DNA of 64,000 nt, from the IMG/VR virus record IMGVR_UViG_3300029404_000062. One strand, 5' to 3'. The DNA is from a virus. Position numbers and translations under genes: made by a program. The notes below the pieces were generated by a model. That model did no database searches. It had not been told where the DNA came from and worked only from the letters and a program-made list of their open reading frames with translations. Shown here one piece after another: positions 2,674 through 36,453 of this stretch (the stretch's first letter is position 1; every line of letters starts with the position of its first letter).

Positions 2674-4059
2674 TTAAACAGCGTAACCCTTGTTCTTAAT
2701 GACCTCCACGACCTGAGAGACGTACTTCTGGCAGGTGTCGTGGTCGGGGGCTTCCACCATCACGCGCACAAGCGGCTCAGTGCCGGACTCACGGACGAGG
2801 ATACGGCCGGTATCGCCCAGTGCTTCTGCAACGGCCTTGACGGCCTCCTGCACCGCCGGGTCGTTCTGTGCGGCCTTTTTGTCGGTGACGCGGACATTCT
2901 CCAGAACCTGCGGATAAATCTTCAGGGGCTCAGCCAGCTTGCTCATAGGCATCTTCTTGGCCAGCATAACTTCCATCATCTTGAGACTGGTCAGGATGCC
3001 GTCACCGGTGCTGGCGTACTTAGAGAAGATGATATGACCGCTCTGCTCGCCGCCGATACGGCAGCCGTTCTTAGCCATGTACTCGTAGACGTACTTGTCG
3101 CCCACAGCAGTCTTAGCGTAGCCAATGCCCTGCTCATCGAACGCCTTGTAGAGGCCAAAGTTGGACATAACAGTCGTGACTACGGTGTTGTTCATCAGCT
3201 CGCCGTGCTCCTTCATGTAGCAGCCGTAGATGTACAGAATGTGGTCGCCGGTGATGACATTGCCTTTCTCGTCCACGCACAGGCAGCGGTCAGCATCGCC
3301 GTCGAAGGCAAAGCCGACATCCAGACCGTTCTCCACCACAAACTTCTGCAGACCCTCAATATGGGTAGAGCCAGCATTGTTGTTGATATTCAGGCCATTG
3401 GGCTTGTTGTTGATAACATAGGTATCTGCACCCAGAGCATCGAAAACACTCTTAGCGATATTCCAGCTTGCACCGTTGGCACAGTCCAGACCGACCTTGA
3501 CGCCTTTGAAGGAGTAGATACCCAGAGAAATCAGATAACCCATATAACGGTTGCGACCTGCCACATAGTCCACCGTACAGCCGATGTGCTCGCGATGGGC
3601 AAAGGGCAGCTCCGGCCAGTCCTTATCAAACACATGAAGCTTGCCGTCGATGTAGTCCTCCACCAGCAGCAGAGTCTCTTCGGGCATTTTCTCGCCGTAG
3701 CAGTCGATCAGCTTGATACCGTTATCGTAGTAGGGGTTGTGGCTGGCAGAGATCATGATGCCGCAATCGAAATCGTCCACGCGGGCAATGTAAGCCACAG
3801 ACGGCGTAGTAGTGACGTGCAGCAGGTAGGCGTCTGCGCCGGAAGCGGTCAGGCCAGCGACAAGACTATATTCAAACATATAGGAGCTGCGGCGGGTGTC
3901 CTTGCCGATAACGATACGGGCAGGCTCGCTGTTGCCGTTGCGCTTGCGGAGCATATTATAATACCAGCCAAGGAAGCGGCCAACTTTGTAGGCGTGGTCG
4001 GCAGTCAGATCAATACCAGCTTCACCACGGAAGCCATCAGTTCCAAAGTACTTTCCCAT
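2674..4059 (-). CDS. glmM: Phosphoglucosamine mutase-like phosphohexomutase.
   Basis: N-terminus MGKYFGTDGFRG and active-site loop GIMISASHNPYYDNGIK (phosphoserine motif) are GlmM hallmarks. Product is ~460 aa. In-frame upstream extension of ORF 2674-4122 ignored; start at MGKYF has RBS GAGGTAA. Confidence 0.75.
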   Translation of the reverse strand: MGKYFGTDGFRGEAGIDLTADHAYKVGRFLGWYYNMLRKRNGNSEPARIVIGKDTRRSSYMFEYSLVAGLTASGADAYLLHVTTTPSVAYIARVDDFDCGIMISASHNPYYDNGIKLIDCYGEKMPEETLLLVEDYIDGKLHVFDKDWPELPFAHREHIGCTVDYVAGRNRYMGYLISLGIYSFKGVKVGLDCANGASWNIAKSVFDALGADTYVINNKPNGLNINNNAGSTHIEGLQKFVVENGLDVGFAFDGDADRCLCVDEKGNVITGDHILYIYGCYMKEHGELMNNTVVTTVMSNFGLYKAFDEQGIGYAKTAVGDKYVYEYMAKNGCRIGGEQSGHIIFSKYASTGDGILTSLKMMEVMLAKKMPMSKLAEPLKIYPQVLENVRVTDKKAAQNDPAVQEAVKAVAEALGDTGRILVRESGTEPLVRVMVEAPDHDTCQKYVSQVVEVIKNKGYAV

Positions 4060-4511: not shown

Positions 4512-4845
4512 CGCTAAATTTTCACGATTTTTTTGTGATCGTTCATAATTTCGAAACAACAGTTACAGTACCACAGCATACCGTTGTCGTACCAAAACCG
4601 GCTTGTTCGTACCAAAATTATACCACGTTTAGGCGTTATTTTCAAGATCTTTCGCGATTTTGTGTTTTAGAATTATTCTATACATTTTACTTCTTTTTAC
4701 GTGCATATAATTTTCACATAGTATCGTGTACTCCTCGGAGCGTCCGGGACCCGGGGCTTCCGCCGGGGCGTTCGCCCTGCCCAGATGCGCTCCTCAGGGT
4801 GGGTGTGATGAGGGGTTGGATGATTCTGTTCGGTCTCCACGATCT

Positions 4846-5194
4846 CACGCTGAAGAGCATCGTACTGCTGCTGGGTGATCTCACCGTTGGCAAGCTGCTC
4901 ATTAGCCTGCTGTGCGGCAGTCTTCAGCGTTGCCAGCTTTTCCTTGGTGGCTTCAATGGCATCCTTGAGCATCTTTTGCTTCTGGACGACCAGTTCTGTA
5001 TTGGAGGGGTCCAACTTCAGGAGTTTGTTGACATCCTTCAGTCCGGACTGCGTCCCCTTGATTGACTTGTTTACACTTTCCAGTGCTTTGGAGAGCTTTG
5101 TGGTATCGCCGCCGATCTCAACGGTGATGCCCTGGATTCTGGATGCCATTTGCGTAACCACCTCCTCGCAGGCATGAAAAAAGCCCATCTGCAC
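4846..5194 (-). pseudogene. Duplicated 5' fragment of the tape-measure gene (first ~116 codons). ~96% nucleotide identity to 36010-36383, then diverges into an unrelated tail.
   Basis: ORF 4697-5194 translates to MQMGFFHA.EEVV..MASRIQGITVEIGGDTTKLSKALESVNKSIKGTQSGLKDVNKLLKLDPSNTELVVQKQKMLKDAIEATKEKLATLKTAAQQANEQLANGEITQQQYDALQREIVETEQN, identical to the TMP N-terminus at 30429-36383. Similarity extends 16 bp upstream of the ATG (GCATGAAAAAAGCCCATCTGCACG.AGCAGACAGGCTAAA). Confidence 0.8.
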
Positions 5195-5292
5195 GAAGCA
5201 GACAGGCTAAAGGAAAAAATGCTATTAGCTGTGTATCAAAGTCATCCTTTCAGCATACAATATATTTATCAGCAAATTTATCGACTAACCGG

Positions 5293-5321
5293 TTGATATT
5301 TTTGCAAACGTGTGCTATAAT
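5293..5321 (+). promoter_or_regulatory. Near-consensus sigma-A promoter upstream of the antitoxin gene.
   Basis: TTGATA, 17-nt spacer, TATAAT, followed by RBS AAAGGAG 10 nt before the ATG at 5348. Confidence 0.55.
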
Positions 5322-5347
5322 GCAATCAAAGAAAGGAGTTGACGATT

Positions 5348-5677
5348 ATGGCTTCTGTTATGAGTGCTATTACCAACACTGTTCCAATCACCCAATTCAA
5401 CCGTGGTCTTGCCGGAAAAATATTTGAAGATGTCAAGCAGTGCGGTGCCAAGGTTGTTATGAAAAACAATGCTGCCGAATGCGTTCTCATCTCCCCGGAC
5501 GAATATGTCCGTTTAATGGATGAATTAAATGATGCTCGTCTGCTGGCTGTTGCTTCTGAACGTATGGCACACTTTGATCCCACCTCTTTGATTTCTGAGG
5601 AAGAAATGAACCGCCGTCTCGGTGTTACAGAAGACGATCTCGCCGGTTTTGACGAGGTAGAAAGTCATCTTCCTTGA
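5348..5677 (+). CDS. Phd/YefM-family type II antitoxin, orphan: no cognate toxin gene follows.
   Basis: ITQFNRGLAGKIFEDVKQCGAKVVMKNNAAECVLISPDEYVRLMDELNDARLL matches the Phd/YefM antitoxin fold signature. The last ~8 codons run into the ParB-MTase gene fragment. Confidence 0.65.
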   Translation: MASVMSAITNTVPITQFNRGLAGKIFEDVKQCGAKVVMKNNAAECVLISPDEYVRLMDELNDARLLAVASERMAHFDPTSLISEEEMNRRLGVTEDDLAGFDEVESHLP

Positions 5678-5745
5678 CCTCCTTGCTGTGGACCTTGTTG
5701 AACAGGGTCTCAATCTCCGGCGGCTCAAAGGGATCAAAACTTCAG
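5652..5745 (-). pseudogene. ~95-bp internal fragment of a ParB-nuclease/DNA-methyltransferase gene (~88% identical to 60331-60425). Minus-strand translation ...PPEIETLFNKVHSKEVKEDDF.
   Basis: Direct nucleotide alignment of 5652-5745 with 60331-60425 inside CDS 59497-60765. Same orientation as the full gene. Confidence 0.65.
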
Positions 5746-5924
5746 CGTTTTGTATGAGTTCTCGGCATTTTCAGTTCATATAACTGTGAAATACAACCAA
5801 TTTCAGTGCCCTATATAGTGTGCAAAACAGGTTCTTTTCGACATTGCTACGTCAATATGGTTTGTTGAGTAGACATTTCTGGACTAAAAATGCGGCGGCG
5901 TAGTTGCTCGACAGGGGCGCAAAA

Positions 5925-6215
5925 AGCTCACTTATTGCGATATGTCGCTACATATCCGATTTTTGAGCATAAAAAAAGAAGCCGCCGATTATGGACGAAT
6001 CGACCGCTTCAAACTCCGTTTGGAGTAAAATGTTCACTTTTTTCTGGACAAGTGATTATTCTCACTTATATGGATTTTTAGTGATTATACTCACTTATTT
6101 TCGTCTGGATGATTCTATCACCCAGATATAAGGGTGCGTAAAAAGCTCACTTATTTTAAGTGAACATAATCACTTATTTTCAATAGCCGTAAGTGAGCTT
6201 AATCACTTATTTTTC
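5925..6215. repeat. Iteron-like array: at least 9 copies of (A)AGCTCACTTATT(TT) or its complement AATAAGTGA in both orientations within ~290 bp.
   Basis: Copies at approximately 5925, 6031, 6051, 6061, 6081, 6091, 6145, 6157, 6171, 6191 and 6203. The final pair forms inverted copies (TAAGTGAAC / GTAAGTGAGC). Confidence 0.6.
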
Positions 6216-6320
6216 ATGGTATGGGTCCCGCCCAGATGGTTACCTTCCGGCTTGCTAACAACTTAGCCTCCTGGATCGTGACCGTCTGGGCTGCTTTTTT
6301 CCTGCTTCGCCACACGCCCC

Positions 6321-6791
6321 TCACACTGCCCCACTGTCGCGTTTTATCGGCGAGGCCGAGGAACTTTCCGCAGCGGAGGTGTTTTCGCCACACAGGGGCT
6401 TTGTGGGGCTTTCGTCCAGAGCCTTTCCGTTTTCCACAAGGAACGGTGTACTCAGGTCAAAGCTCACAAGTTTTTGACCTGGGATGCTTTTCCCTTCCAT
6501 GCGGTAAGTCCTGCTCTTGTTCCAATGGGCATCCCGGTAGATCATCTGCACCAGTGCCTTGCACTTTATCTCACAGCTATTGCCTTCATTCAGCTTCGGC
6601 GTTTTATGAGAACCCACATCCTCGGCTGCACAATTCTGGACTGCCACTTGATTGGCCCGACGATTGTATAAAAAGCGATAATGTACCGGCCAGCCCAGAG
6701 CTTCCAAGGTGCTGCGGAAGATAGTGATCCTTCCATCCACCGCATTAAAGGTCATCCCCAGCATCCGCTGGTTCCATATTCTTTCGCTCAC
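6321..6791 (-). CDS. Stand-alone paralog of the serine-recombinase C-terminal domain (DUF4368-like), diverged copy.
   Basis: MTFNAVDGRITIFRSTLEALGWPVHYRFLY... aligns with rec1 residues ~415-520 (TIFNGKLRFNTACLKKFETVEYVELLL...) and with ORF 6843-7559. Confidence 0.45.
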   Translation of the reverse strand: MSERIWNQRMLGMTFNAVDGRITIFRSTLEALGWPVHYRFLYNRRANQVAVQNCAAEDVGSHKTPKLNEGNSCEIKCKALVQMIYRDAHWNKSRTYRMEGKSIPGQKLVSFDLSTPFLVENGKALDESPTKPLCGENTSAAESSSASPIKRDSGAV

Positions 6792-6842
6792 GTCTCTCCC
6801 CTCCTCAAAAATGGGCGCACTTTCCCCTTGGTATCGTTATGT

Positions 6843-7559
6843 TCAATCTGTTCCGGCACTCTGCCCGACTTCGGGGACCGCTTTCCCTGTCAGTATTCCC
6901 ATTGACACATATTCGTCCATCTGCTGAACTTCGGATTCCTTCAGATGTTCTTCTACAGGCACGCCAAAAGTACCCGCAATATCATCCGGGTAAAATCCCT
7001 TTCTGCTGCTTGCAGGCTTTTCTTCTGGTGTGTTATTCGGAGAATCGGCGGCACCTTTCTTCCGTCTCTGTCCTTCATGGAAAATCTCAGGCACGAGCAA
7101 ATCAAAGACATACAGGGTTTCACCCTCAAAGGTGATCCTGTATCCCAGCATCTTGTACCGGCATTCGCTATCCCAGCCCATCTCCTTATAGACCAGCTCG
7201 GCAAAAGGCTTGCAGGACATTTTTCTGCTCTTTCGCTTATCCGGTTTTGCAACGCACCAGCGCAGAGCGTCTTTATCATTTTCATCACAGCCGCGCACGA
7301 CAATTCGCTTCAAGTCACTGTTGAACATGACATGAACATAGACCACATCTTCCAGACCAGTAATGCAGGCCGTGTTGAATGTGATGCTGTCCTTGCGGAT
7401 CACGATGGCGGGGTCACGAAGATGAGCAAACAACTCTTTTCGCACGACCTGATATCCATCATACGAAAAGGTACTCTCCAGTTCTTCTGCTCTTGTGTCT
7501 CTATCATTTTGTTCTGCCTGCTCTTCTGATGGCAGAATTACAGTATTTTCCTCATTCAT
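6843..7559 (-). CDS. Stand-alone paralog of the serine-recombinase C-terminal domain (DUF4368-like). Overlaps the stop of recombinase 1 by 8 nt.
   Basis: YDGYQVVRKELFAHLRDPAIVIRKDSITFNTACITGLEDVVYVHVMFNSDLKRIVVRGCDENDKDALRW aligns along its length with the rec1 C-terminus (LTGYEVVRAQYFSTMQNPAMTIFNGKLRFNTACLKKFETVEYVELLLNSVDRCVAIRPCEKSNPNAIRW). Confidence 0.55.
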   Translation of the reverse strand: MNEENTVILPSEEQAEQNDRDTRAEELESTFSYDGYQVVRKELFAHLRDPAIVIRKDSITFNTACITGLEDVVYVHVMFNSDLKRIVVRGCDENDKDALRWCVAKPDKRKSRKMSCKPFAELVYKEMGWDSECRYKMLGYRITFEGETLYVFDLLVPEIFHEGQRRKKGAADSPNNTPEEKPASSRKGFYPDDIAGTFGVPVEEHLKESEVQQMDEYVSMGILTGKAVPEVGQSAGTD

Positions 7560-9393
7560 CTATTTCAGTCCATCCTTCCATTATCTCTTCCGCTTCATGG
7601 AGCAGCGCATTCAGACTATCTGCGGTAAATGTATTCATTTCTTCTATCTCTGTTGCCGGCCGAAGCACATCCCAGTTCCCGGCATAATGTTCCTGCTGTA
7701 AAATACCGACCTGCGCAATACTTGTGATTGGCTGTCCAAAAGTCCCTGCCCATTCCGGTGGGAAAATGTAAATCGTTTTTTTGACCGTTTCGCCCTCTGC
7801 TTCTTCCGAATTTTCCTTTGGCGGCAGAACGATTTCTTCAACCTTGATCATCTCCGGCTCGTCCAGTTCAAAGAGCATCAGCTTATTATCGCCGTCCTCC
7901 ACGAATTGCCCACGGAACCGATAACGCAGATCTTCATCCCACTCCATGATGTCAAAAAGAGTCTTTGCCAGACCACGGCAGCCAAGTGTGCTGGCACACC
8001 AGCGTCCTTCTTTCAGCCGACCCCAGCGGATTGCATTGGGATTGCTCTTTTCACACGGACGGATAGCAACGCAGCGGTCAACGGAATTTAACAACAGCTC
8101 CACATATTCCACAGTTTCAAACTTTTTCAGGCAGGCTGTGTTGAAACGCAGTTTTCCATTGAAAATCGTCATTGCAGGGTTCTGCATCGTTGAGAAATAC
8201 TGCGCCCGAACCACCTCATATCCCGTCAGGTCGAGCCGTTTTTTCACATCTGCCACGACAGAATCGTCCGGCTCCTGCATCACACTTTCGGATGCTTCCC
8301 GGTATTCTTCAGCCGAAAAGCCTGTCCAGTCCTTATCGAAAGGAACATATCCTCGCAGGATTCCATCATCAACCACGCTCAAAACCGGCAGTGGCCGATT
8401 TTTCCTCGTGTAACTTCTGGATGCTCTCAGGTGATTGGCAGCGTTGAATACATCTCTGGACACGATTGCCTCATGGTGGTCCCGCTGCCGATACTGCGTC
8501 CGATCATTGTTGTTTTTCTTGGATTTATGCGTCAAAAAATTTGGCGTGTAAGTCTTTCGAGCCAGTACATCTCCGCAATGACGCTCATTTGCAATGACAC
8601 CCGCCAATGTGCTCGGATTCCATTCCGTGTTCCCCGGCTTCGTCTTCCGCCCGTATTCCGTTAGGAGTTCTGCAATTTCCTTAAGAGAAAATCCGTTCAA
8701 GTACAGGTAATAAATCACCTTTACCGTCTGGGCTTCCTCTGGGTTGACCACCAGGTTGCCTTCCTCGTCCTGATCATATCCCAGCAGAGCCGGAGTCAGG
8801 AACAGACCACGGCTAAAGCGCCGGTCAATGGACCAGTTCATAATGATAGACTTGGAATGGGATTCTTCCTCTGCCACTGATGCCAGAATGGTAAGAATCA
8901 TGCGGCCATTGCTGTCCAACGTGTAAATATTGTCGGCTTCAAATTTCACACCTACAGGTGGTGTAAGGTTTTTCAGTGTTTCAATTACAGATAAGCAGTC
9001 TACGATATTTCGTGCAAAACGGGCAATGGACTTCGTAAGAACAAGGTCGATTTTCCCGGCCTTGCAGTCCTCAATCAACTGCTGCATTCCCTTGCGATGT
9101 TCCAGGGATGTGCCGCTGATGCCCTCGTCATCGTAGATGCCGACAAATTCCCATCCCGGCTGCGCCTTGATGTATTCAGTATAATAATTCTTCTGAAGCT
9201 CATACGAGGAAGTCTGTTCATCATTGTCAGTGGAAACACGGACATAGGCTGCGACACGCCGAATAGAGGTGCTTTCTTCAAGCCCCTCCACAGTTTTTGC
9301 CGGGATGACTTCCAGTTCAGAGGCATCCACGCCTTTATACCGATCTCTGATTTTTTGCTTGCGGTCTACCGCTTCCACTTCACTGCTTATCAT
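7552..9393 (-). CDS. Large serine recombinase 1 (resolvase catalytic domain + recombinase domain + zinc-ribbon + C-terminal DUF4368-like domain).
   Basis: N-terminal AAYVRVSTDNDEQ (catalytic Ser) ...KSIARFARN. 613 aa. Confidence 0.85.
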   Translation of the reverse strand: MISSEVEAVDRKQKIRDRYKGVDASELEVIPAKTVEGLEESTSIRRVAAYVRVSTDNDEQTSSYELQKNYYTEYIKAQPGWEFVGIYDDEGISGTSLEHRKGMQQLIEDCKAGKIDLVLTKSIARFARNIVDCLSVIETLKNLTPPVGVKFEADNIYTLDSNGRMILTILASVAEEESHSKSIIMNWSIDRRFSRGLFLTPALLGYDQDEEGNLVVNPEEAQTVKVIYYLYLNGFSLKEIAELLTEYGRKTKPGNTEWNPSTLAGVIANERHCGDVLARKTYTPNFLTHKSKKNNNDRTQYRQRDHHEAIVSRDVFNAANHLRASRSYTRKNRPLPVLSVVDDGILRGYVPFDKDWTGFSAEEYREASESVMQEPDDSVVADVKKRLDLTGYEVVRAQYFSTMQNPAMTIFNGKLRFNTACLKKFETVEYVELLLNSVDRCVAIRPCEKSNPNAIRWGRLKEGRWCASTLGCRGLAKTLFDIMEWDEDLRYRFRGQFVEDGDNKLMLFELDEPEMIKVEEIVLPPKENSEEAEGETVKKTIYIFPPEWAGTFGQPITSIAQVGILQQEHYAGNWDVLRPATEIEEMNTFTADSLNALLHEAEEIMEGWTEIDE

Positions 9394-9403
9394 GTACTTC
9401 CTC

Positions 9404-10381
9404 TCATTCTTCCGGCTTTATGCTCCAATACCACTGGCGCATCTTCCGATAGCTTCGGATGCCGAGTTCCTTTTTTGTATTTTCTGCGGTCCTGCGGCTG
9501 ATACCCTCGTCGCTCATCCGCATATAGATTTCCCTTGATCTCATGTCTCCCTCAGAAAGCAACTTTTTGATCAAGTATGCGGCTTTCTCGGACTTCGATT
9601 CAAAATCTGGCATTCCCGGATCTGCGGATGGATCTGGTGTAACCTCACACTCCAACCACTCAAATCCTGCTTCTGCTGTTATGGAGAACCGAATCTCACC
9701 GTCTGATGGAGCCAGACTATTTTTGATCTGCCGAACAATACGGATGTCTGTGTTTTCCGGGTCGCGCTCTACTTGCAGGACACTCCGGGCCGCAGCCACG
9801 ACATCAATACTGCCCAGGCTCCGGTACAGACCTTTGGTTCCTTCCTTTTTGTTGAGATGCCCAATCAGCACAATGGCACAATCATATACGGATGCCCACA
9901 TACCCAGCCGGTGCATCAACTTTCTTGCTCTGCCCGCAATCTGAAGGTCAGAATCGCTTCCAAGATATGCCTGAATCGGATCGATGACTACCAGACGCGG
10001 CCGGAATTCTATAATAGCCTGCCGGATGCGTTCATCATCCAGCGTCAGCCCGCTGTATGTATCTTCATTTATAAATGCCACATTCCTGCAATCCGCACCG
10101 CACTTTTCCAGTCTGGGCTTGATGGTATCTGACACACCGTCCTCCGAACACTGGTAGATGACTTTCTTCGGCATCCCGATTGGTTTTCCATCCGGGGTGT
10201 TCCCGCCTTTAGAAAGTTCCGCAATCAGGTTCATCATCATTGTGGATTTGCCATCTCCGGGATCTCCTTGCAGCAATGTGATCTTTCCAACTGCAATGAA
10301 CGGATACCACAGCCAGCGAACAGAAGTCGCCTGTACATCACTATATAATGTAAGAATTCCTGTTTCACCTTTTCCTGCCAT
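9404..10381 (-). CDS. RecA-like P-loop ATPase (AAA_25/RepA-like) with C-terminal DNA-binding-like tail. Co-operonic with recombinase 1.
   Basis: Walker A GDPGDGKS and Walker B-like RLVVIDPIQ. Start at MAGKGETG has RBS GGAAAGGAAAG. Its stop lies 11 nt from the rec1 start. Confidence 0.6.
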   Translation of the reverse strand: MAGKGETGILTLYSDVQATSVRWLWYPFIAVGKITLLQGDPGDGKSTMMMNLIAELSKGGNTPDGKPIGMPKKVIYQCSEDGVSDTIKPRLEKCGADCRNVAFINEDTYSGLTLDDERIRQAIIEFRPRLVVIDPIQAYLGSDSDLQIAGRARKLMHRLGMWASVYDCAIVLIGHLNKKEGTKGLYRSLGSIDVVAAARSVLQVERDPENTDIRIVRQIKNSLAPSDGEIRFSITAEAGFEWLECEVTPDPSADPGMPDFESKSEKAAYLIKKLLSEGDMRSREIYMRMSDEGISRRTAENTKKELGIRSYRKMRQWYWSIKPEE

Positions 10382-10631
10382 CGTCTTTCCTTTCCATTTG
10401 CAGTCTTTTCCTACATTTATATTATAGAGAATGCGTGACGATTTGGCTTCCACCTGTCAGGTGGAGTAACACCAAAAATTCCACTTGTCAGATGGAAAAA
10501 TCGCCTAAGACCACATTACCGATGGAGGTGCGGACTATTGCGGTCTTAGAATCTCCTATATTCAGTTGCTATGTGCATCTTCCTGCGAGATAATCGAACT
10601 GCCTTATGCGGGTATCATAAGGAGGAAACAC

Positions 10632-10973
10632 ATGGCAATCGATTATATCGCACTTGGACAGCGCATTAGCGATTTTAGAAACAAACATAATTTTTCACAG
10701 GAGGAGCTTGCTTTCCGCAGTGGCGTTGGAAACAAGCATATCAGCAACATTGAACTTGGAAAAGGAAAACCGAGTCTGGAATCTCTCGTCCAAATTGCAA
10801 ACGTTCTTAATGTATCCGCAGATGACCTGCTAGTGGACAGCCTTACACACTCTACTTCCACTGCTGACACGGAGATTCACCGTCTGCTCTTAGACTGTAA
10901 CGCAATCGAACAGGAGATTCTCACCCGGATGGTAAAGGAGATGAAAGCAATCCTCTACGGTTTGGGAATCTGA
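10632..10973 (+). CDS. XRE-family helix-turn-helix transcriptional regulator.
   Basis: FSQEELAFRSGVGNKHISNIELGKGKPSLESLVQIANVLNVSADDLL is a classic HTH_3 motif. Only plus-strand gene in the island. Confidence 0.7.
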   Translation: MAIDYIALGQRISDFRNKHNFSQEELAFRSGVGNKHISNIELGKGKPSLESLVQIANVLNVSADDLLVDSLTHSTSTADTEIHRLLLDCNAIEQEILTRMVKEMKAILYGLGI

Positions 10974-11134
10974 TTTTGTAACCCGTTGACCACATAACAA
11001 AAAAGCCCGCATAAGCCACAGCTGCACTTCGGCTCAAACCGGGGTGCTGTCTGTGGTTCATGCGGGTCAGGGCAAAAAAAGGAGCCCGCCAGCGTACCAT
11101 GTAGATTCTACACAGTGCGCCAGCGGGCAAAATT

Positions 11135-11653
11135 TCACTTCAATAGATCAGACAGACTGTATTCTCCCTTCGGAATGTTTGCAGTTCTCCGATATTCCTT
11201 TATTGCACTTATCAATGTTTGTGGATTACTGAAATAGTCCTTTACAAAATCATATGACTTCACATCATGCATACGCAGATCCGTCTTACAAAATTCGCTC
11301 GGTTTCTTCCCAGAACGCTTAAACTTGTCATAAGCTCCTTCACTATGGATGATCAGCATTTCTATTTCTGGTGCTGTAATGATATTTATGACATCAACCT
11401 TATGTTCGTAAGCCTTGCTAAGACGAAAATCTTCTCTGCGAGAATCCAAAATCCGAATCACGGAAATTTGGTCATCAAAGCCTTTACGCAAGTAACGCTC
11501 CTCAAATCGCTTTGCACTTCGGCAGCGGATAACACTTTCGTCCAGCATTTCTTCCCTTGAAAAAATCAAAAGGTCATTATCCACAAGAATATCAATAATT
11601 GCGGACTCTGCAGAGCCCTCGCATATACACGCTTTATATTTTGCTAATTTCAT
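11135..11653 (-). CDS. Small DUF4276/RloB-like (TOPRIM-related) protein, partner of the AAA_21 ATPase.
   Basis: N-terminus KACICEGSAESAIIDILV resembles the xLVEGxTEExFV TOPRIM-like start of DUF4276 proteins. 172 aa, low GC (~38%). Separated from the upstream ATPase gene by 13 nt. Confidence 0.45.
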   Translation of the reverse strand: MKLAKYKACICEGSAESAIIDILVDNDLLIFSREEMLDESVIRCRSAKRFEERYLRKGFDDQISVIRILDSRREDFRLSKAYEHKVDVINIITAPEIEMLIIHSEGAYDKFKRSGKKPSEFCKTDLRMHDVKSYDFVKDYFSNPQTLISAIKEYRRTANIPKGEYSLSDLLK

Positions 11654-11665
11654 TTCGCCGCCTCC

Positions 11666-12817
11666 TTAGTGTATTGAAGCAGCCAAATTTTTCTTCAAGC
11701 GCATATATGCCTCATATGCAGGAGTTGTTCCCTCAAGAAAACCGCTTTGATAGGCATCACTCTTTTTAATGTCATTGCGCTTTAAAATATTGCTCAAGTT
11801 ATCAGCTGTGATTCCGTTACGGTTTCTAACGATATAGATTCCATCATTTCGGTCATATTCATCCAGCAATTCTGGATAGTGCGTTGTAAAAATCAGTGTT
11901 CCACCGTTTCTGTTCAAACGGCTATCCATAAAGAAGCGTACTAAAGTCGTGACAATTTCTTTATTAAAATGGTTTTCGATTTCATCCACCAGAAGGTATC
12001 CACCGGACTGAAGAACCTCTTTTACCATTGAAAAAGTAATGATACCCTTGATTGTGCCGGAAGACAGATACTGTTCAAGATCCACTGCATTGTTCAAAGT
12101 GATCTCATCTTCACCCTTAAATTTCAGGTGAATAAAGGTTTTTCCATCTGTTTCTTCAAAACACAATTTTTCAATGGTCGGATCAAGAAAAGCTATCACT
12201 TCGAGTGGGATGTCATCTGTAAATGGAAGGACATTCACATTTGTATAAGAAAGCAGGCTGAATACTTCAACCTTATCATTTGTCTTTTTATTATGAGCAA
12301 TAATCAAGCTAACATCGTCCGGAAGGAACGCTTCATCATTATTCCGAACTGCAGCCGGCTCTATTCCGGTAAAATCCGTCAGATATTTTTTCGACTTTAC
12401 GCTGGCAATCGGTTTCTCCCACATTTTTTCGGCCAGAATAGAGTAATTATAATCTCCCGCTTTTGCTTTCTTTGCCACAATCACAGTCTCCAGGCAGCAG
12501 ACGTATTTGCGTTCATCATAAAAATATGTGCGAATCGTTGCCTTCTCAGTTCCTCCAAGAATGCTCTTTGCTTCCACATGATTAATGGGCTCATTTTTAA
12601 CAATGCTCAAGGCCAGATTGATAACTTTCAGCACGGATGTTTTTCCAGACGCATTGATGCCAATAAAAGCACAAGCGGAATGAAGGTAGTAATTATCCTT
12701 CATCCTATACAGGCGATCTTTATCATCCTCACTTACACGCTGTTGGGTATAAAAGCAGATATCAAGATCTTCCTTAAACAGTGGAAGTCCTTGTGCCGTG
12801 ATACGAAGTATTTTCAT
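11666..12817 (-). CDS. AAA_21/ABC-type ATPase (OLD/AbiL-like ATPase component).
   Basis: Walker A GINASGKTS, Walker B LLVDEIENHF, followed by TTHYPELL (H-loop). 383 aa, low GC. Confidence 0.65.
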   Translation of the reverse strand: MKILRITAQGLPLFKEDLDICFYTQQRVSEDDKDRLYRMKDNYYLHSACAFIGINASGKTSVLKVINLALSIVKNEPINHVEAKSILGGTEKATIRTYFYDERKYVCCLETVIVAKKAKAGDYNYSILAEKMWEKPIASVKSKKYLTDFTGIEPAAVRNNDEAFLPDDVSLIIAHNKKTNDKVEVFSLLSYTNVNVLPFTDDIPLEVIAFLDPTIEKLCFEETDGKTFIHLKFKGEDEITLNNAVDLEQYLSSGTIKGIITFSMVKEVLQSGGYLLVDEIENHFNKEIVTTLVRFFMDSRLNRNGGTLIFTTHYPELLDEYDRNDGIYIVRNRNGITADNLSNILKRNDIKKSDAYQSGFLEGTTPAYEAYMRLKKNLAASIH

Positions 12818-12914
12818 TTTTCAATCCCCCTTCTAAAAACGGCTTTTCCGTTTTTATTTTTCACTATTCTTATTATACCCCACCTAAAAGAAATTATCAA
12901 CGATTTTTCCGTTT

Positions 12915-13316
12915 TTATTTTCTTCTATATCTCAAACTCCGGTAAGCATCCTGTATGAAGCCCACAAACTCAGGACTCATCGTCTCCACGATATGTTTGC
13001 CGTCCACCCCTCGCAGCATCTCTACGGCGATCTGCGCCACATCGCTCTTGTCCTGTTCCATCCGTCTCAAAGCATCTGCCACCGCCTCATCAATGAACGC
13101 AGCGAGCTTTGCTCCTTCAATAATGCTTTGTACCGGCATCGGTGCGCCATCTTCACCCGCCAGCCGGATGACTTTTGGTTCTATGATCTCCCCGATCTTA
13201 CGCAGTGCTTCATCCTCCGGCATCTGCCGCAGATACCCTTTCATGGTGCTTACGACCATTATCTCCAGCGGTGTTGTCCCGTAATCCTCAACGGAAAGCC
13301 ACGATAACCTTTTCAC
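12915..13316 (-). CDS. Hypothetical protein (133 aa).
   Basis: ORF only; no recognisable motifs. Confidence 0.3.
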   Translation of the reverse strand: MKRLSWLSVEDYGTTPLEIMVVSTMKGYLRQMPEDEALRKIGEIIEPKVIRLAGEDGAPMPVQSIIEGAKLAAFIDEAVADALRRMEQDKSDVAQIAVEMLRGVDGKHIVETMSPEFVGFIQDAYRSLRYRRK

Positions 13317-13410
13317 ACTATCCTCTCCCTGCTATGTGTATTTCTGTGTACCCACAACATATAACAGGACTCTGCACATAGCAACCAAATTTTTCCGGAT
13401 AAACGGAAAC

Positions 13411-13460
13411 AAAAAAGGCCCTGCCAGATGCAGTTTTGAGCCACATCCAGCAGGGTCGTA
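13411..13460. terminator. Bidirectional rho-independent terminator downstream of recombinase 2.
   Basis: Stem GCCCTGCCAGATG...CATCCAGCAGGGTC with T-runs on both flanks (TATTTTTT on plus, TTTTTTGTTTCC on minus). Confidence 0.55.
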
Positions 13461-13518
13461 TTTTTTCTCACATTATGCTGTTCGTCTTATCGTTGGTTTC
13501 TTCAAATAGTGTTTTTTC

Positions 13519-15819
13519 TCACACAGCTTCTCCACGTTCCCGTTTTGCAGCGGTCGTCAGATACCGGCGATACTGGATGCTGAAGCCATGCACTTTGTAC
13601 GGTGCATCCACATACACCACCGTACCGTTGAGGTCGCTCCGCTTGAATCCCATGAAGCTGGTCAATGTTCTGCGATTGCCCTTCGTCGTCAGCGTTACAC
13701 CGAAGTTCGTCTTGTAGGTGATGATATCGCCCTGCACCACTCCACTCTCGATGAAGGCGCAGTAGATACCTTTCTCAAAATGAAGCATATCTGGGGATTC
13801 GGCGATTCGCTCTGGTGTCAGCTTCAGCTTGCCCTTGGTCACAGCGGACACTCGCCCTTCAATGACCTTACCGTCCACATCTCTCAGAAGACTTCCCTGC
13901 ACATCCAGTCCGTTGACCTTCAGCGGCATTCCGGCCGCGTTGGTATCCGGCAGTTCTTTCAGGCAGGCAAGGAAATATTCAAAGTTCTTCTTCATGATCG
14001 TCAGCACACCCTGCTCTGCCTCGATGGTCTGCTGCTCATGGCGAAGCGTCTTGATGCGCTCCCGCAGGTCATTTACCAGCTCTGTGTAGATTTGGGCCTC
14101 CGAGCCTTCCTCTGCCGAAATCTCATAAAAGGATGCTCCGATGCTGTTCGGGGTCAGCCCGTTCCGGATGTCCGTGTCGATGTCATCGATTGTCACCTCG
14201 CCGTTGGAAAGGGCATCCTTCAGTTCCGCATTATCTTCCAGAGCGGCTTCCCGCAGGGCTGCCACCTGATGGCTGACTGCATCCTGCAGGCGTTCTTCCA
14301 GTTCTTCGATCTGAGAATTCACCGTCTGAAGCCGCTGTACCGAGATGCTGTTGTTCTTTGCCTGCTTCATCGCCTGTTCAAAAGCGTTGTCGAACAGGGT
14401 CACGATCATGGATGCATCGCCGTGCTGTTCGTAATCCCGCTTCATGCTGTAAAGCAGTTCCATGAAGCTCTGCTCCAAAGCGCATTCATAATAGGTTTCA
14501 GAAGGACACCGTTCATTGGCGGCTTTCTTTTCCGCATCCGACATACATCCCTTTTTGCTGCGACAGTACATTTTCTGGTCGGGGCTGCCATTCTTGGGCG
14601 GTGCGTCCTGCCGTTCTCCTGCCTTCCGCTTGCACTTCCAGACAGGATAGGAATAGCTGTACTTTTCGAGGAATTCACCCGTATCCTCCCCTGTCGCTTT
14701 CAGGCTCCTCTCATCCGTGTAGCCATTTGCCACGCCAGTGTACGTCACACGAAAGAATCCTTCACCACAGGGCTTTCCGGCATCCGGTCCATGCTCAAGG
14801 ATTGCCCCACAGCGCAGATTTCCAAAAGGTGAGCCTTTGATGGTGCGGGTCTTTTTCTTTCCGGGACCTTTCGTCATATCCGTCCGGGGCTTCTCGAACA
14901 AAAGCGTCTGCACCTTATCCCAAGTCACCCGGTCGATGATGCCTACATGGTGGTTCTTGACATAGTACCGGGGTGCTTCACCCTTATTGATGCTGGAACG
15001 GTGTGTCAGGAAATCCTTCGTGATGGTCTTCTGCATCTCCACATCGCCTACATATTTCTCATTCCGCAGAACGATCAGGATGGAGCTTGCCCGCCATTTC
15101 TTTCCGTTCACAGTCGTCTTTCCCAGCTCGTTCAATTCTTCTGCGATTTTATTAGCGGTCTGCCCCTTCACGAAGCGTTCAAAGATGTACCGCACCACCT
15201 GCGCCTGTTCCGGTACGATCACCCACTCCTGATTCGGTCCCAGATCATACCCCAGCATCCGCTTCAGATTGATATGCGGAACGCCCGCCTGGAACTTCTT
15301 CTGGATACTCCAGCGGATGTTGTCCGAAATGGAACGGCTCTCATCCTGTGCCAAAGCGGAAAGGATGGTCAGGATCAGCTCGCCTTTGGCATCCAGCGTA
15401 TCGATATTTTCCTTCTCGAAGTACACACCCACAGGCGGCTTCAATTGCCGAAGCTCACGGGTACAGGTCAGGGAATCGATCGTGTTTCGTGCGAATCGGG
15501 AAATGGACTTCGTGACAATGTAGTCCAACTTGCCATCCATCGCGTCCTTCATCATGCGGTTGAATTCCTCACGGTGCTCTCTGTTCGTGCCGGATTTAGC
15601 TTCATCGGCATAGATGCCTGCAAAGATCCATCCAGGTTTTCCTGTAATCAGGTTCTTGTAGAATGCTTTCTGGGTCGTGTAGGATGTCTGCTGGCTTTCA
15701 TCGCCAGTGGACACGCGGCAGTAAGCCGCCACACGGATGTTCGTCTGCTGTTTCAGCTGTCCGCCATTCTGCACTGATCGCACACTGGCAGGGATCACGT
15801 CTACTTTTCTCTGTGCCAT
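13519..15819 (-). CDS. Large serine recombinase 2 (766 aa).
   Basis: AAYCRVSTGDESQ...KSISRFARN resolvase domain; long recombinase/zinc-ribbon/coiled-coil C-terminus. Confidence 0.85.
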   Translation of the reverse strand: MAQRKVDVIPASVRSVQNGGQLKQQTNIRVAAYCRVSTGDESQQTSYTTQKAFYKNLITGKPGWIFAGIYADEAKSGTNREHREEFNRMMKDAMDGKLDYIVTKSISRFARNTIDSLTCTRELRQLKPPVGVYFEKENIDTLDAKGELILTILSALAQDESRSISDNIRWSIQKKFQAGVPHINLKRMLGYDLGPNQEWVIVPEQAQVVRYIFERFVKGQTANKIAEELNELGKTTVNGKKWRASSILIVLRNEKYVGDVEMQKTITKDFLTHRSSINKGEAPRYYVKNHHVGIIDRVTWDKVQTLLFEKPRTDMTKGPGKKKTRTIKGSPFGNLRCGAILEHGPDAGKPCGEGFFRVTYTGVANGYTDERSLKATGEDTGEFLEKYSYSYPVWKCKRKAGERQDAPPKNGSPDQKMYCRSKKGCMSDAEKKAANERCPSETYYECALEQSFMELLYSMKRDYEQHGDASMIVTLFDNAFEQAMKQAKNNSISVQRLQTVNSQIEELEERLQDAVSHQVAALREAALEDNAELKDALSNGEVTIDDIDTDIRNGLTPNSIGASFYEISAEEGSEAQIYTELVNDLRERIKTLRHEQQTIEAEQGVLTIMKKNFEYFLACLKELPDTNAAGMPLKVNGLDVQGSLLRDVDGKVIEGRVSAVTKGKLKLTPERIAESPDMLHFEKGIYCAFIESGVVQGDIITYKTNFGVTLTTKGNRRTLTSFMGFKRSDLNGTVVYVDAPYKVHGFSIQYRRYLTTAAKRERGEAV

Positions 15820-15861
15820 AATTGCTCCTTTCCGCCGATCCTCTTCCGACCGGCTCTCGCT

Positions 15862-18210
15862 TTACTTTCTCCGAATCTGCTTCACATACTGCTTTCTCTG
15901 GCTTCCATTCCGCATCACATGACCATCAAAGTAGCTGGCAGTGTAGCGGTAATCCTCGATGTTGGTATCCATCTCAACTTCCGTTTTGGTGTCATCGAAC
16001 CAGTGGATCGTGTACTTCAGCGGAGAATGGATAGTCATCGAAAGGATAAATGCCTTGCAGTGTTCCTGCGTCATACCGTTCAGAAATTCTATCATTCCTT
16101 CCCGTCCTGCCGGAAGCTGTTTCATCCATTCGAGGGCTTTTTCTCGGCGGTCATAATCCTGTTCCAACTCTTCCCAGTATTCTTCCAGATAGTCAAGCCG
16201 TTCTGTCAGTTTCTGTTCCGATTCTTCGTCTGCTGCTACCGCCTGTTCCAGCTTTTCAATCAGCTGTCTCTTTTCCTCAATGGTGGCTGCATCGATCATC
16301 TCATCACCCAGAAGTTCCAGTCTGGTTTGCATAACATCCACCTGACTCTTCAGCAGACGGATTTTCTTATTCGTGCTCTCGATACTGAGATGGGCCGCCG
16401 AAATCTGCTTTTTATAAAAGGCACGGTCACGTTCCATGAAGTCCAGCTTCTGTATGCTTTCCAGCCGCGACAACATCTGGCTCACAAAGCTGTCCGCTTC
16501 CGGGGTGAAATTTTCATACTGCTCTTTGAACCGTCCACTCATGATGTCTGCAATCTTCACATCATCGTGGATCGGTTTGACCGTCAGCCGGAACCGTTCC
16601 AGAACACCTTTTCGGAATACGCGGATGATCTGTTCCTCATACACCTTTTCTGCATGACAGATCCTCTTTCCATTATTCTGATTGCTGGAAGGGCAGAACC
16701 AAATCGTGTTGCTCCCGCTTGAGTTTCTTACATTATAAAATCGTCCGCATTCTCCACAGATGAGTCTTCCGCTAAAAGCCTTCGGTACATTTAATTTTCC
16801 CAGCCCCCTGCCGTAGTAAGAACTGTTCATTATTCGTATCTCTTGTACTTTTGCAAACAATTCTTCATCGATAATTGCCGGGTGATGGTCTCTGACCAGA
16901 TATTGCGGAACTTCTCCATTATTTATCCGTCTTTCATGGTTTAAGTAGTCCGTAGTATAGCTTTTTTGAATCCGGACTGCCCCTGTGTAACGCTCCGCAC
17001 GAATAATCTGCCCGATCTGCCGTCCAGTCCAGCCATCTTCCAACACACTGTTGAGCTGTCCCTTTTTTGAATTTTTCTTTCGGGCTTCCACTGCCTTTGT
17101 TCGCGGTGGTGGAATTCTATCAAAATTCAAGCTCCTGGCAATCTCTGTATATGCCTTACCTTCCAGAACTTCATGGAAGATTCGCCTGACCACCGCCGCT
17201 TCCTCTTCAACGATTTCAATGTCCTTATACTTATATCCACTTTCAAGGGTAATGACCTTTCCATTGTAGCGGTACCCATAAATGACCGCATTCCTGACTT
17301 CTCCCTTTGGAAAGCGCATCTTATTTCCAAGATTGATATTGCCGGAAATACTCCGACTCTCTTCCTGGGCGATTGCCGCCAGCGTAGTAAGGATAAAATC
17401 ATTCGTCGGGTCAGCGGTGTCCAGATTTTCCTTTTCAAAAAGGATCGTCACGCCACTGTCATGCAGGGCATCCAATGCTTCCATGAAATCTGCCGTGTTC
17501 CGTGCAAAACGGGAAATGGACTTGCACACAATGCGGTCGATTTTTCCCTCTTTGCAGTGCCGGAGCAGTCTGCGGAATCCGGTTCTATTTTCTCTGGATG
17601 TACCGGAGATGCCGTAATCTGAGTACACACCAACTGCATTCCATTCCGGATTGCTTTCAATCAGCTGGTTAAAATAGCGTTCCTGTGTTTCGTAGGAATT
17701 TTCCTGATCACTCGAATCTGTAGAAACGCGGATGTAAGCAGCCACCTTCAGACAGCCATTTTTCTTTTTCGTTGCACGGAACGTAGCCGTGGAGATGAAT
17801 CGGTTGTCCTGTTCCTGTGGTTCTTCATCTGCATGAAAAAGCTGTGAGAACTCACTCTGCATCCCGCTCTGTACTTTTTCTGCGATGTCCGGCTGTGCCA
17901 TGACTTTCCTTGCCGCCAGCGCATTCTGAATCAGTGCGGTAATGCCGGGGTCTACTACTTCTTTTGGTTTTTGTTGAGTAGACCTGTCCTGTTGCGTGTC
18001 AGTCGAGGGTAAAAAGGAAGCCGTGGCAGCTTCCGTACTCTGACGGACTCCTGCCACAGCTTCTTTCGGTTTAAGGGCTGCTGCCAACAGAGCTGAAACA
18101 TCCACGGCAGATGCCGTTTCTCTCTTTTTCTGTTTCTGCTGGACGGTATTTTTGACCGTTGCTTTCTGTAAACTTGCCAGAAAATCAGTTCCTGCACTCA
18201 TAATCTCCAC
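15862..18210 (-). CDS. Large serine recombinase 3 (782 aa) with a ~140-aa N-terminal extension.
   Basis: VAAYIRVSTDSSDQ...KSISRFARN; CGECGRFY zinc-ribbon. Confidence 0.85.
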   Translation of the reverse strand: MEIMSAGTDFLASLQKATVKNTVQQKQKKRETASAVDVSALLAAALKPKEAVAGVRQSTEAATASFLPSTDTQQDRSTQQKPKEVVDPGITALIQNALAARKVMAQPDIAEKVQSGMQSEFSQLFHADEEPQEQDNRFISTATFRATKKKNGCLKVAAYIRVSTDSSDQENSYETQERYFNQLIESNPEWNAVGVYSDYGISGTSRENRTGFRRLLRHCKEGKIDRIVCKSISRFARNTADFMEALDALHDSGVTILFEKENLDTADPTNDFILTTLAAIAQEESRSISGNINLGNKMRFPKGEVRNAVIYGYRYNGKVITLESGYKYKDIEIVEEEAAVVRRIFHEVLEGKAYTEIARSLNFDRIPPPRTKAVEARKKNSKKGQLNSVLEDGWTGRQIGQIIRAERYTGAVRIQKSYTTDYLNHERRINNGEVPQYLVRDHHPAIIDEELFAKVQEIRIMNSSYYGRGLGKLNVPKAFSGRLICGECGRFYNVRNSSGSNTIWFCPSSNQNNGKRICHAEKVYEEQIIRVFRKGVLERFRLTVKPIHDDVKIADIMSGRFKEQYENFTPEADSFVSQMLSRLESIQKLDFMERDRAFYKKQISAAHLSIESTNKKIRLLKSQVDVMQTRLELLGDEMIDAATIEEKRQLIEKLEQAVAADEESEQKLTERLDYLEEYWEELEQDYDRREKALEWMKQLPAGREGMIEFLNGMTQEHCKAFILSMTIHSPLKYTIHWFDDTKTEVEMDTNIEDYRYTASYFDGHVMRNGSQRKQYVKQIRRK

Positions 18211-18367
18211 TCCTTTCTGCCCGTTTCTTCCTTTGGGCAGTCACATATTCCCTCTGTTTCGTGATATTATCAAGTTTTATCGGCGCAGAAAGACGGAGAA
18301 ATACCGCTCCGATTATTGTTCTATCTGCACGATATGTACCCCACCCTTGGCGGGTGGGGAGGTCTTA

Positions 18368-19834
18368 TCAGATCCGGGCAGCATAGTCCAGACTGATCCA
18401 GCCTGCGCCGGATTTCAGCTTACCCCAGCCCTTGACCGAGCCAGTTCCAGCAGATTCTGCGACAATGGTGAACACGCCCTTTCCGGTGTAATAACCGGTC
18501 TTACCGTAATTCGTGCCCGGTCCCTTGCGGATGTTGAGGTCGTTAATGGATACACGGACTGCATACGGCACAGATGCCGCCGGGGTAGTCGGATAGACCG
18601 CCTTGCCGTCCGGGTCAAAGACCGTATAGCCGGGATTTGCATCTGCACATTCTTTGGCATAGACCAGCTCATGGAATGCGCCTTTCTGGGAAGCCGCGTT
18701 CTGCCAGCTCTTACGCACACGATACCAGCCGGAAATCGCGGTGCTGTCAGACGCTTTTGCCAGATCATACTTCGTAAGGTTCCAACGCTCGATGATACTG
18801 CAAAGGTTCTGAACATAGGTGTGGCTGGTCGCATAGCCACCGTCCTTGATCAGCTGCACTGCTTTCTTGTAGTCCGTGCAGCCTGCCAGACCCTCATAGC
18901 GTTTCTTGCTGCCGTTCATTGCCCCCAGCAGATACGCTGCATGGTCGGCAATAGAATCTTCCACACAGTCATATTTGCGAAAATTAGCTGTGATTGTGAC
19001 CATCGAACCGTCCGGGTTCTGTTCCTGCGTTTTCTTCGTGTAGACAGACGTTCCATCCCATGCAGAATTCGGCCAGGTATTACCGGAGAGGTCAGCCTTC
19101 ATGCCAAAGCAGTTATTGGCATTCTGCGCCAACTCGCTCGTGCCATAGCCGGACTCCAGAATGAACTGTGCCATCGACACACAGGCGAGGATGCCGGACT
19201 GTTTCTGGTTCTCCGTGAATAGCGGCCCGATCTTTGTGACTGCTTCTGCCTCAGATAGATTTTTCAGCGAAGATGCCTGCAAGCCGGAAGAACCGCCCAG
19301 TGCCGCCGTCGCCTTTGCCGCCAGATCACCCAGACGGGCATACAGCCAGTCGCCGGGGCAGCTTTTGTTGGCAAACCAGCGATGCACAGTCAGCACCATC
19401 TCGTCTGCTGCCGGAGCATAGTTGAGTGTCTTATTCTTATCCCCCAGCCACAACAGCTTTTTCTTGCCGTTGCGCTGACAAATATCGGTGCAGAGCTTAA
19501 TTAGGGAACCGTACACCGAACTGTTCATGGCATACGGTGCAGTCAGGTCACTGGCGCACTCGATAGTGATAGCTCTCTGGTCATTCGCATTGCTGGAAGA
19601 GCACCAGCTGCGGTTCTTCTCTTCCACGCACAACGAAACCCTGCCGTCCTTGCCGATGCCGTAGTTGCAGCTTGCCTGACGGCTCGTGCTGGTAAAGCAG
19701 CCGCAGATGCTTTCCGCAGAAAGCTGACCCACAACACAATGCGGTGTGATACGGTCGATGCTGTGTGTCCTCTGCCCGGAGTGGTTCGGGGAGAGATTGG
19801 TGTAAACAACAAGTGGACTATTGGTATATCCCAT
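18368..19834 (-). CDS. Modular endolysin: N-acetylmuramoyl-L-alanine amidase (Amidase_2/PGRP) + glucosaminidase domain + C-terminal SH3b-like repeats.
   Basis: Amidase_2-like NHSGQRTHSIDRITPHCVVGQ; glucosaminidase-like FILESGYGTSELAQNANNCFGMK; C-terminal GWYRVRKSWQNAASQKGAF / VRVSINDLNIRKGPGTNYG repeats. Confidence 0.8.
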   Translation of the reverse strand: MGYTNSPLVVYTNLSPNHSGQRTHSIDRITPHCVVGQLSAESICGCFTSTSRQASCNYGIGKDGRVSLCVEEKNRSWCSSSNANDQRAITIECASDLTAPYAMNSSVYGSLIKLCTDICQRNGKKKLLWLGDKNKTLNYAPAADEMVLTVHRWFANKSCPGDWLYARLGDLAAKATAALGGSSGLQASSLKNLSEAEAVTKIGPLFTENQKQSGILACVSMAQFILESGYGTSELAQNANNCFGMKADLSGNTWPNSAWDGTSVYTKKTQEQNPDGSMVTITANFRKYDCVEDSIADHAAYLLGAMNGSKKRYEGLAGCTDYKKAVQLIKDGGYATSHTYVQNLCSIIERWNLTKYDLAKASDSTAISGWYRVRKSWQNAASQKGAFHELVYAKECADANPGYTVFDPDGKAVYPTTPAASVPYAVRVSINDLNIRKGPGTNYGKTGYYTGKGVFTIVAESAGTGSVKGWGKLKSGAGWISLDYAARI

Positions 19835-19898
19835 AATGATTACCTCCTGAAAAAGATAGAAGCCCGGATTTCTCCGAGCCTCTGCGCAATGTGTATTT

Positions 19899-20609: not shown

Positions 20610-20661
20610 CTTGTTCTCCTCCTAAAAATAAGGGAGAGGCTGTCACACCTCTCCCAGTTCA

Positions 20662-26975: not shown

Positions 26976-26997
26976 ATTTTCCCCTTTCCCGGCTGCA

Positions 26998-29630: not shown

Positions 29631-29637
29631 CTCCCTT

Positions 29638-30420: not shown

Positions 30421-30428
30421 CTCCTCCT

Positions 30429-36450: not shown

Positions 36451-36453
36451 TTT

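Follow-up and report, generated by a model that had tools for sequence, protein, structure and literature searches.

A probable remnant of a second, related prophage between host glmM and a prophage with three large serine recombinases

We analysed a window of 64,000 bp, the whole stretch of IMG/VR virus record IMGVR_UViG_3300029404_000062. It holds host DNA with the glmM gene (phosphoglucosamine mutase) of Faecalibacterium, 909 bp of phage debris (4822-5730), a short non-phage flank called here the arm, and the right part of a resident prophage with an intact tape-measure protein (TMP) gene (Table 1). The host DNA was common to seven phage-free strains from position 1 up to 4821-4824, and the debris sits between the right end (attR) of the resident prophage and glmM. 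The region is an integration hotspot for elements using large serine recombinases (LSRs), and it holds several recombinase elements in other strains (L002, L006 and L110). Neither the Rfam scan nor the tRNA scan of the window gave a match. The phage-free strain L007 carries two glmM copies (5720-7105 and 10001-11386) about 3 kb apart with 88.8% nucleotide identity, and L105 has a glmM-like fragment in opposite orientation 1.7 kb past its phage end.

Table 1. Coordinates of the host, debris and prophage features in the window
Feature	Position	Strand	Remarks
Host glmM (phosphoglucosamine mutase, Faecalibacterium)	2674..4059	-	host DNA
Promoter-like site upstream of glmM	4617..4645	-	intact; 177 bp from deletion junction
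Stub ORF, 150 aa	4697..5149	-	TMP residues 1-109 fused to 41 codons of host-derived DNA
Repeat copy 1 (stub)	4822..5211	-	hairpin, RBS and first 109 codons of B-type TMP
B-type block (Phd cassette and TMP start), 842 bp	4822..5663		98.7-100% identical to B-type phages
Terminator-like hairpin	5182..5208	-	11-bp stem and T run; within repeat, upstream of TMP start
Promoter-like site for Phd	5293..5321	+	TTGATA-17-TATAAT with TG, 11/12 matches
Orphan Phd/YefM-like antitoxin gene	5348..5677	+	C-terminus altered by breakpoint: ..EVESHLP* instead of ..EVEIE*
Phage ParB-N6 methylase gene fragment, 70 bp	5660..5730	-	91.4% to 60325-60394
Arm, non-phage flank after attR (B' side)	5730..5875		about 146 bp, then cut off
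attR crossover region	5869..5886	-	..TAGTCCAGAAA / TGTCTAC..; crossover about 5875/5876
Resident A-type prophage, right part	5876..64000	-	continues past the window
Conserved terminal phage block	6321..18210	- (HTH on +)	LSR1 to X156
LSR3	7552-9393	-	terminal block
LSR2	13519-15819	-	terminal block
LSR1	15862-18210	-	terminal block
Intact tape-measure gene	30429..36338	-	1969 aa, PhageMin_Tail domain
Repeat copy 2	36011..36400	-	hairpin, RBS and first 109 codons of resident intact TMP
DUF234 ATPase cargo gene	36454..37851	-	PADLOC candidate PDC-S27, E = 3e-56; A-type counterpart of Phd/ParE cassette

Self-BLAST of the window and ungapped alignment gave a direct repeat of 390 bp (4822-5211 and 36011-36400), in which 371 of 390 positions were identical (95.1%, E = 1e-176). 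The copies are 31,189 bp apart (offset), both lie on the minus strand, and both edges of the repeat are sharp; a repeat of this kind cannot be chance. The second copy belongs to the intact TMP gene of the resident prophage, and the first, called here the stub, has its own ATG at 5149 (36338 in the resident gene). An RBS and a terminator-like hairpin lie in the 62 bp that the repeat covers ahead of the ATG. From the ATG on, the stub matches the TMP protein for exactly 109 residues, and its reading frame then runs through 41 codons unrelated to TMP to a stop codon at 4697-4699. No promoter-like site was predicted for the stub ORF. The repeat had been noticed in an initial annotation of this DNA, and the self-comparison confirmed that it is real, that the stub is co-oriented with the full TMP gene, and that the copies bracket the recombinases and the lysis/tail-tip region: the rest of the TMP gene, the tail-tip and lysis genes and three LSR genes lie between them. 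The annotation had aligned 4846-5210 with 36010-36400 at ~96% identity, where the repeat itself stood and its start and identity were corrected to 4822 and 95.1%; the 16 bp upstream of the ATG and the ~116 shared residues that it gave were replaced by the 62 bp and 109 residues above. The repeat is not an attachment-site duplication, being 390 bp long at 95% identity rather than a pair of short identical cores at the ends of an element, with one copy 30 kb inside the prophage and the other outside attR.

To place the right end of the resident prophage, we compared it with the ends of more than 20 related prophages. In all relatives, ..GAGT(G/C)CAGAAA is found about 510 bp downstream of X156, and the flanks diverge after it. 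The nearest relative, L098 (97% nucleotide and 97-100% amino acid identity), diverges exactly at the crossover into the reading frame of ugd (UDP-glucose dehydrogenase), and a ugd frame follows the phage end also in L103, L105 and L110. The stub is therefore outside the resident prophage, which should be annotated as ending at 5875/5876 and not at the stub. Inside this end lies a conserved terminal block, which in this phage family (the window and L098-L118) contains three LSR genes (782, 766 and 613 aa). Its other members are X133, an AbiLi-like ATPase with a 172-aa gene, HTH, AAA_25, X238 and X156. The order lysis, LSR1, LSR2, (X133), HTH, AAA_25, LSR3, X238, X156 is kept in more than 20 related IMG/VR loci. 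We had considered the module with the third recombinase (5731-13316) as a separate element or phage satellite, and this was rejected because it is the conserved phage end in these loci. The AbiLi-like AAA_21 ATPase (PADLOC, E = 2.5e-31) and its 172-aa partner gene, at 11135-12817 inside the recombinase block, were found in the lineage of the window and in L098 only, and were absent in the other relatives. The non-coding stretch of ~510 bp between X156 and the att site contains iteron-like repeats of TCACTTATTTT and its complement (6040-6215), which may be putative binding sites of a recombinase or an accessory factor.

Flanks of at least three classes follow the right end of this phage family: one lies inside the ugd frame, one is a scar array ahead of ugd, and one is the arm. 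This suggests that the family has several target sites in polysaccharide-synthesis genes. In the second class (L133, L135, L100 and L062), an att-like scar array lies about 450 bp past the phage end. A P-arm-like motif (TTTTTCCG..GAATTAGAGGT.G) occurs in it in two further copies and the ugd-type half-site (TTATGACAATAAG..CAGCACTTTG) is present twice, and in L135 the array leads to an intact ugd and glycosyltransferase genes. The array looks like the record of repeated integrations and deletions. This flank had also been a candidate for the left end of the phage, which was rejected because it is an att-scar array upstream of the intact host ugd.

Two arrangements upstream of the TMP gene were distinguished in these phages. 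The A-type is that of the resident prophage, with the DUF234 ATPase gene; the B-type is that of sister phages, which have a Phd/ParE-like cassette before an intact TMP gene and are overall about 93-95% identical to the resident phage. In the B-type slot between the tail gene t144 and the TMP gene, the Phd gene and an overlapping gene for a ParE/RelE-like toxin of 111 aa lie on the opposite strand (weak Pfam matches: ParE 23.1 bits, Phd 22.1 bits). A 38-mer common to both copies of the repeat was used as search seed and was found in 68 IMG/VR contigs, about 20 of which carry an intact TMP gene preceded by exactly the upstream sequence of the stub. The match to the sister lineage extends past the 390-bp repeat over a foreign block of 842 bp (4822-5663), found in L020, L029-31, L036, L045, L052, L053, L059, L064, L072, L074, L079, L082 and L083, and further in two isolate genomes (L090 and L092). 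Among isolates, genomes of Faecalibacterium intestinale and Blautia faecis have the B-type arrangement, and their TMP gene is intact.

Compared with the intact TMP genes of B-type phages, the stub allele was 100% identical to that of L083 and 98.7% to 15 others, whereas its identity to the resident copy was only 95%. At the 19 sites that differ between the copies, the stub haplotype was that of L083 (B-type, intact TMP) and the resident haplotype was that of L037 (A-type), and comparison of the 19-site haplotypes with these two gave no conversion tract between the copies. All 10 coding differences in the 109 shared codons were synonymous; with 74 synonymous and 253 non-synonymous sites, this has P of about 4e-7 under neutrality. 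It indicates that both copies diverged as functional genes in different phages. On these comparisons, the stub is not a duplicate of the resident TMP gene. A segmental duplication of the resident gene was rejected by the identities (95.1% to the resident, 100% to L083) together with the synonymous differences, which equally speak against a recombination scar made from the resident copy, one of two origins offered by the initial annotation. Among INPHARED phages, the only relative was a distant one, Clostridium phage NatCom_42228, with 72.7% identity over part of the TMP gene.

The debris consists of two non-contiguous phage pieces located at the integration locus, between the resident end and host DNA at 4821. 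They retain a 70-bp fragment of the methylase gene, one small gene (that of the antitoxin, promoter included), and the first 109 TMP codons with the RBS and hairpin ahead of them, which falls short of the genes that a functional phage needs. All these parts are homologous to genes of intact phages (98.7-100% to the B-type; 91% to the resident gene for the methylase fragment), and the methylase fragment adjoins the B-type block in phage order and orientation. The block breaks at 5663, and in B-type phages the toxin ATG would follow 5 bp later; thus, the ParE-like toxin is gone, and the window holds an antitoxin gene with no adjacent toxin gene instead of a complete type II toxin-antitoxin (TA) module. 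The three junctions have microhomology of just 3-5 bp: TTTGA at 5730 between the arm and the methylase fragment, about 3 bp between the methylase fragment and the block, and ATC between TMP and host DNA. At the last of these, TMP homology ends exactly where host homology begins, with ATC alone in common, 177 bp upstream of the promoter-like site of glmM. A recombinase crossover inside TMP at 4822 was rejected because of this ATC microhomology and the lack of att-like sequence.

The same structure, with the stub joined to host DNA on one side and to Phd and the X156 phage end on the other, was present in contigs from several ENA studies, JGI and Logan, and L003 carries it at 99.5% identity. Its recurrence in independent assemblies excludes an assembly artefact, which the initial annotation had named as the finding that would overturn it. 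Some short contigs start inside the repeat, as a real repeat predicts. The exact stub/host junction is known only from the ENA, JGI and Logan contigs found by protein look-up, and a scan of GTDB representative genomes, IMG/VR and JGI metagenomes gave no match, so that the structure belongs to one strain lineage.

We conclude that the stub is probably debris of a second, B-type prophage, which decayed between the resident attR and glmM in the same orientation as the resident prophage. This is the other origin considered in the initial annotation, the stub of a second, related and largely deleted prophage, and it is supported by the sister-lineage allele, the cassette of that lineage and the second colinear phage fragment. 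The B-type prophage would have integrated in situ next to glmM and then decayed, and nearly all of it would have been lost in at least three illegitimate deletions, all with junction microhomologies of 3-5 bp. The first deletion would have joined the arm to the methylase gene, and the second would have taken out the DNA between the methylase gene and the toxin start. The third would begin at TMP codon 109 and extend across the remaining phage and its attR to host position 4822. Deletions that removed the antitoxin would have been lethal while the toxin was present, and a piece centred on the antitoxin may have survived for this reason. TA modules resist loss and typically decay through inactivation or loss of the toxin (review PMC7167474). 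Given both points, the antitoxin would be expected to survive longest, together with the DNA right beside it, to which the TMP start belongs. The stub is probably silent, because it has no predicted promoter and terminator-like hairpins lie ahead of it, and it is probably itself functionless.

Larger remnants of a second copy were found right after the end of the first phage in several relatives. Those of L112/L062 and L100 comprise a tail-gene fragment, t144, the cassette and TMP. In L099/L075, DUF234 and TMP come after fragments of three genes (one of 394 aa, terL and t144); the remnant of L020 resembles these. The debris of the window stands at the far end of this series of decay stages. 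Internal deletions with differing endpoints have also arisen independently in many IMG/VR relatives (L101, L103, L108/L047, L110/L051, L111, L114 and L076), and defective derivatives of the phage appear to be common in gut metagenomes. Examples of the fusions created by such deletions join TMP aa 633 to X238, TMP aa 1260 to an LSR3 fragment, TMP aa 1774 to LSR2 aa 89, metK aa 99 to clp aa 54, and the methylase to the HTH region.

The initial annotation had proposed tandem lysogeny. In a true tandem dilysogen, an intact attP would have linked the two copies, as when an incoming phage recombines homologously with the resident one, and the second copy would have decayed later; the arm would then be the left end of the phage. 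The arm (TGTCTACTCAACAAACC...) does follow the phage end exactly at the crossover, and it does so in L111 and L118 as in the window. To find the left end, we walked leftward in relatives through the SAM-synthetase gene and the polymerase gene to the CI-like repressor gene. The arm was absent beyond the repressor in 20 of 21 repressor-proximal left arms in this walk, which ended short of a clean attL, and the fact that the real attL of the phage was never seen leaves some room for a tandem. The DNA beyond the repressor contained a 'glyoxalase' gene cluster and a sugar nucleotidyltransferase gene. In L118/L235 (59 kb), the right end of a first phage is followed by the arm, a truncated nucleotidyltransferase gene, the cluster, and the repressor and early genes of a second phage. 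The repressor there is only about 6.8 kb beyond X156, as a tandem might have it, but the nucleotidyltransferase gene that the arm abuts is intact, with unrelated upstream DNA, in L217, L223 and L237. L118/L235 thus represents two co-oriented prophages with about 5.5 kb of polysaccharide-locus DNA between them. The arm also follows the end of an unrelated recombinase element in L120/L121, and L098 has the ugd ORF, not the arm, at the same point. We consider a true tandem unlikely, and the L118/L235 arrangement favours side-by-side lysogeny at neighbouring hotspot sites. The second prophage of the earlier proposal is therefore retained, but a strict attP-joined tandem was not demonstrated: in the comparison with the left arms reached, the sequence after the resident end did not look like the repressor-proximal left end of the phage. 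The ugd-type half-site, as found in the L110 flank, was sought in the phage-free strains to rebuild the attB of the lost phage, and none was present in them. In the left arm of L237 (about 2300-2470), the C-terminus of another serine recombinase (DUF4368-like) abuts the start of the host sugar nucleotidyltransferase gene, and the 5' end of this gene seems to be a further integration target.

The short microhomologies at the three junctions would also suit a capture of filler DNA, in which two B-type fragments, for example from an aborted infection, were joined beside attR by end joining and a second prophage never existed; relative to L120, the insert stands in place of about 660 bp of host-side DNA. 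Such a capture is nevertheless quite improbable, because both fragments keep the order and orientation of the phage map and point the same way as the prophage next to them, because relatives have graded and much larger second-copy remnants at the same position, and because a clean loss of the toxin with the antitoxin kept fits stepwise decay under selection. It is very improbable that the debris is mobile DNA of the resident phage itself, for example from aberrant excision in an earlier host, with a true phage end at 4822. The remnant is linked to the resident prophage in every contig found, as this would demand, but in L098 and more than 15 others the phage stops at ..CAGAAA, with unrelated flanks beyond it, and the 4822 junction has no att-like sequence. 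A local segmental duplication of the resident TMP start, or an assembly artefact, is scarcely credible: the copies are co-oriented and 95% identical and some short contigs break inside the repeat, but the stub carries the allele of the other lineage together with its cassette, its coding differences are all synonymous, and contigs of different studies, including the 99.5% variant L003, span both contexts.

The repeat is a latent substrate for recombination. The initial annotation had predicted that homologous recombination between the copies would excise ~31 kb. The longest perfectly identical run between them is 134 bp (5016-5149), a length at which RecA-type recombination would be feasible. 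The deletion product would be without most of the TMP gene, the tail tip, the lysis genes, all three recombinases and attR, and the deletion would lock the resident prophage in place. Residues 1-109 do not differ between the stub and resident proteins, so that the 150-aa protein encoded by the product would be unchanged. When this protein was looked up exactly, 9 contigs were returned, each with the phage end upstream. The remnant-specific Phd occurred in 40 index blocks, and the phage end adjoined it in 23 of the 23 contigs read. The predicted mechanism is thus possible, but its product was not found among the contigs encoding the exact stub or remnant proteins; rare deletion variants may exist. 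The repeat will also break short-read assemblies.

The find is an ordinary prophage remnant in a serine-recombinase hotspot, of a known kind and not a new type of element. Polylysogeny is familiar from double Stx-phage lysogens and from the multiple lambdoid prophages of Salmonella and E. coli. As in those cases, related co-oriented prophages at one locus give rise to direct repeats that can recombine, with L118/L235 representing the two-prophage state; unlike them, the window contains only debris of the second phage, whose attachment site cannot be reconstructed. For LSRs, a 'multi-targeting' class was reportedly described by Durrant et al. in 2022. The junction of the phage right end to at least three flank classes in or near polysaccharide-synthesis genes (ugd) resembles such enzymes, a likeness that concerns the surroundings of the stub and not the stub itself. 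As a phage fragment left after deletions, the debris resembles the cryptic prophages DLP12, e14, Rac and Qin of E. coli K-12 (PMC6379469), which likewise are without excision, lysis and structural genes, remain at an integration locus, and can recombine with related phages (PMC6379469). It differs from classical cryptic remnants in being just 0.9 kb in three pieces and in lying directly beside an apparently intact, closely related prophage, and from the E. coli examples in that its phage family uses LSRs, not tyrosine integrases.

As in decaying type II TA modules, the Phd-family antitoxin and its intact promoter outlasted the ParE/RelE-like toxin (PMC7167474). Antitoxins have been described as anti-addiction modules (PMC7167474, citing Saavedra De Bast et al. 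2008); unlike these, the Phd of the window is a putative antitoxin, known from its sequence with weak Pfam matches. It is improbable, though conceivable, that the remnant is not inert, with Phd and its near-consensus promoter selected as an anti-addiction or immunity factor against the ParE-like toxin of incoming B-type phages and the 390-bp homology serving cargo exchange. If this were true, the resident prophage could swap the DUF234 ATPase gene against Phd/ParE with the remnant or with infecting relatives. The locus represents a clean, well-dated case of prophage erosion in gut Firmicutes, with microhomology deletions, a toxin lost before its antitoxin, and a last deletion that stops short of the promoter-like site of glmM. 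For annotation, the 150-aa 'tape-measure' ORF beside glmM is a fusion relic and should not be given a tail-gene annotation.

The surroundings are more interesting than the stub itself, with three recombinases, several target classes, scar arrays and a swappable slot for defence cargo. This slot, between t144 and the TMP gene, is a cargo hotspot that holds the DUF234 ATPase gene, the Phd/ParE pair (for example, L045, 2240-2895) or at least one further type, represented by loci with unrelated sequence upstream of TMP. Internal repeats are common in tape-measure proteins, and the resident TMP gene has such repeats with 82-86% identity (32547-32795; 30747-30829 and 33099-33181). DNA of the TMP region was about 92-99% identical in the GTDB genomes L086-L097 (isolates or MAGs), which are labelled Blautia (7), Faecalibacterium intestinale, Clostridium fessum, Lawsonibacter and Acetatifactor and belong to two bacterial families. 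Near-identical copies of the phage are found in Blautia and Faecalibacterium. This spread reflects either an unusually broad host range of the phage or contaminated assemblies.

Near the end of the window, the independent contigs L008, L011 and L015-L017 end within about 90 bp of each other (63934-64022), just upstream of the SAM-synthetase gene, and two Logan contigs read through this point, which hints at a repeat or a strain-variable point there. A repeat of ~57-100 nt occurs in seven copies in 48010-54965 (at 48010, 48493, 49151, 49765, 50436, 50753 and 54889), in front of small early genes, and has no Rfam match. Read on the gene strand, it resembles a promoter (TTGCTA-17-TAATAT) followed by a leader and an RBS.
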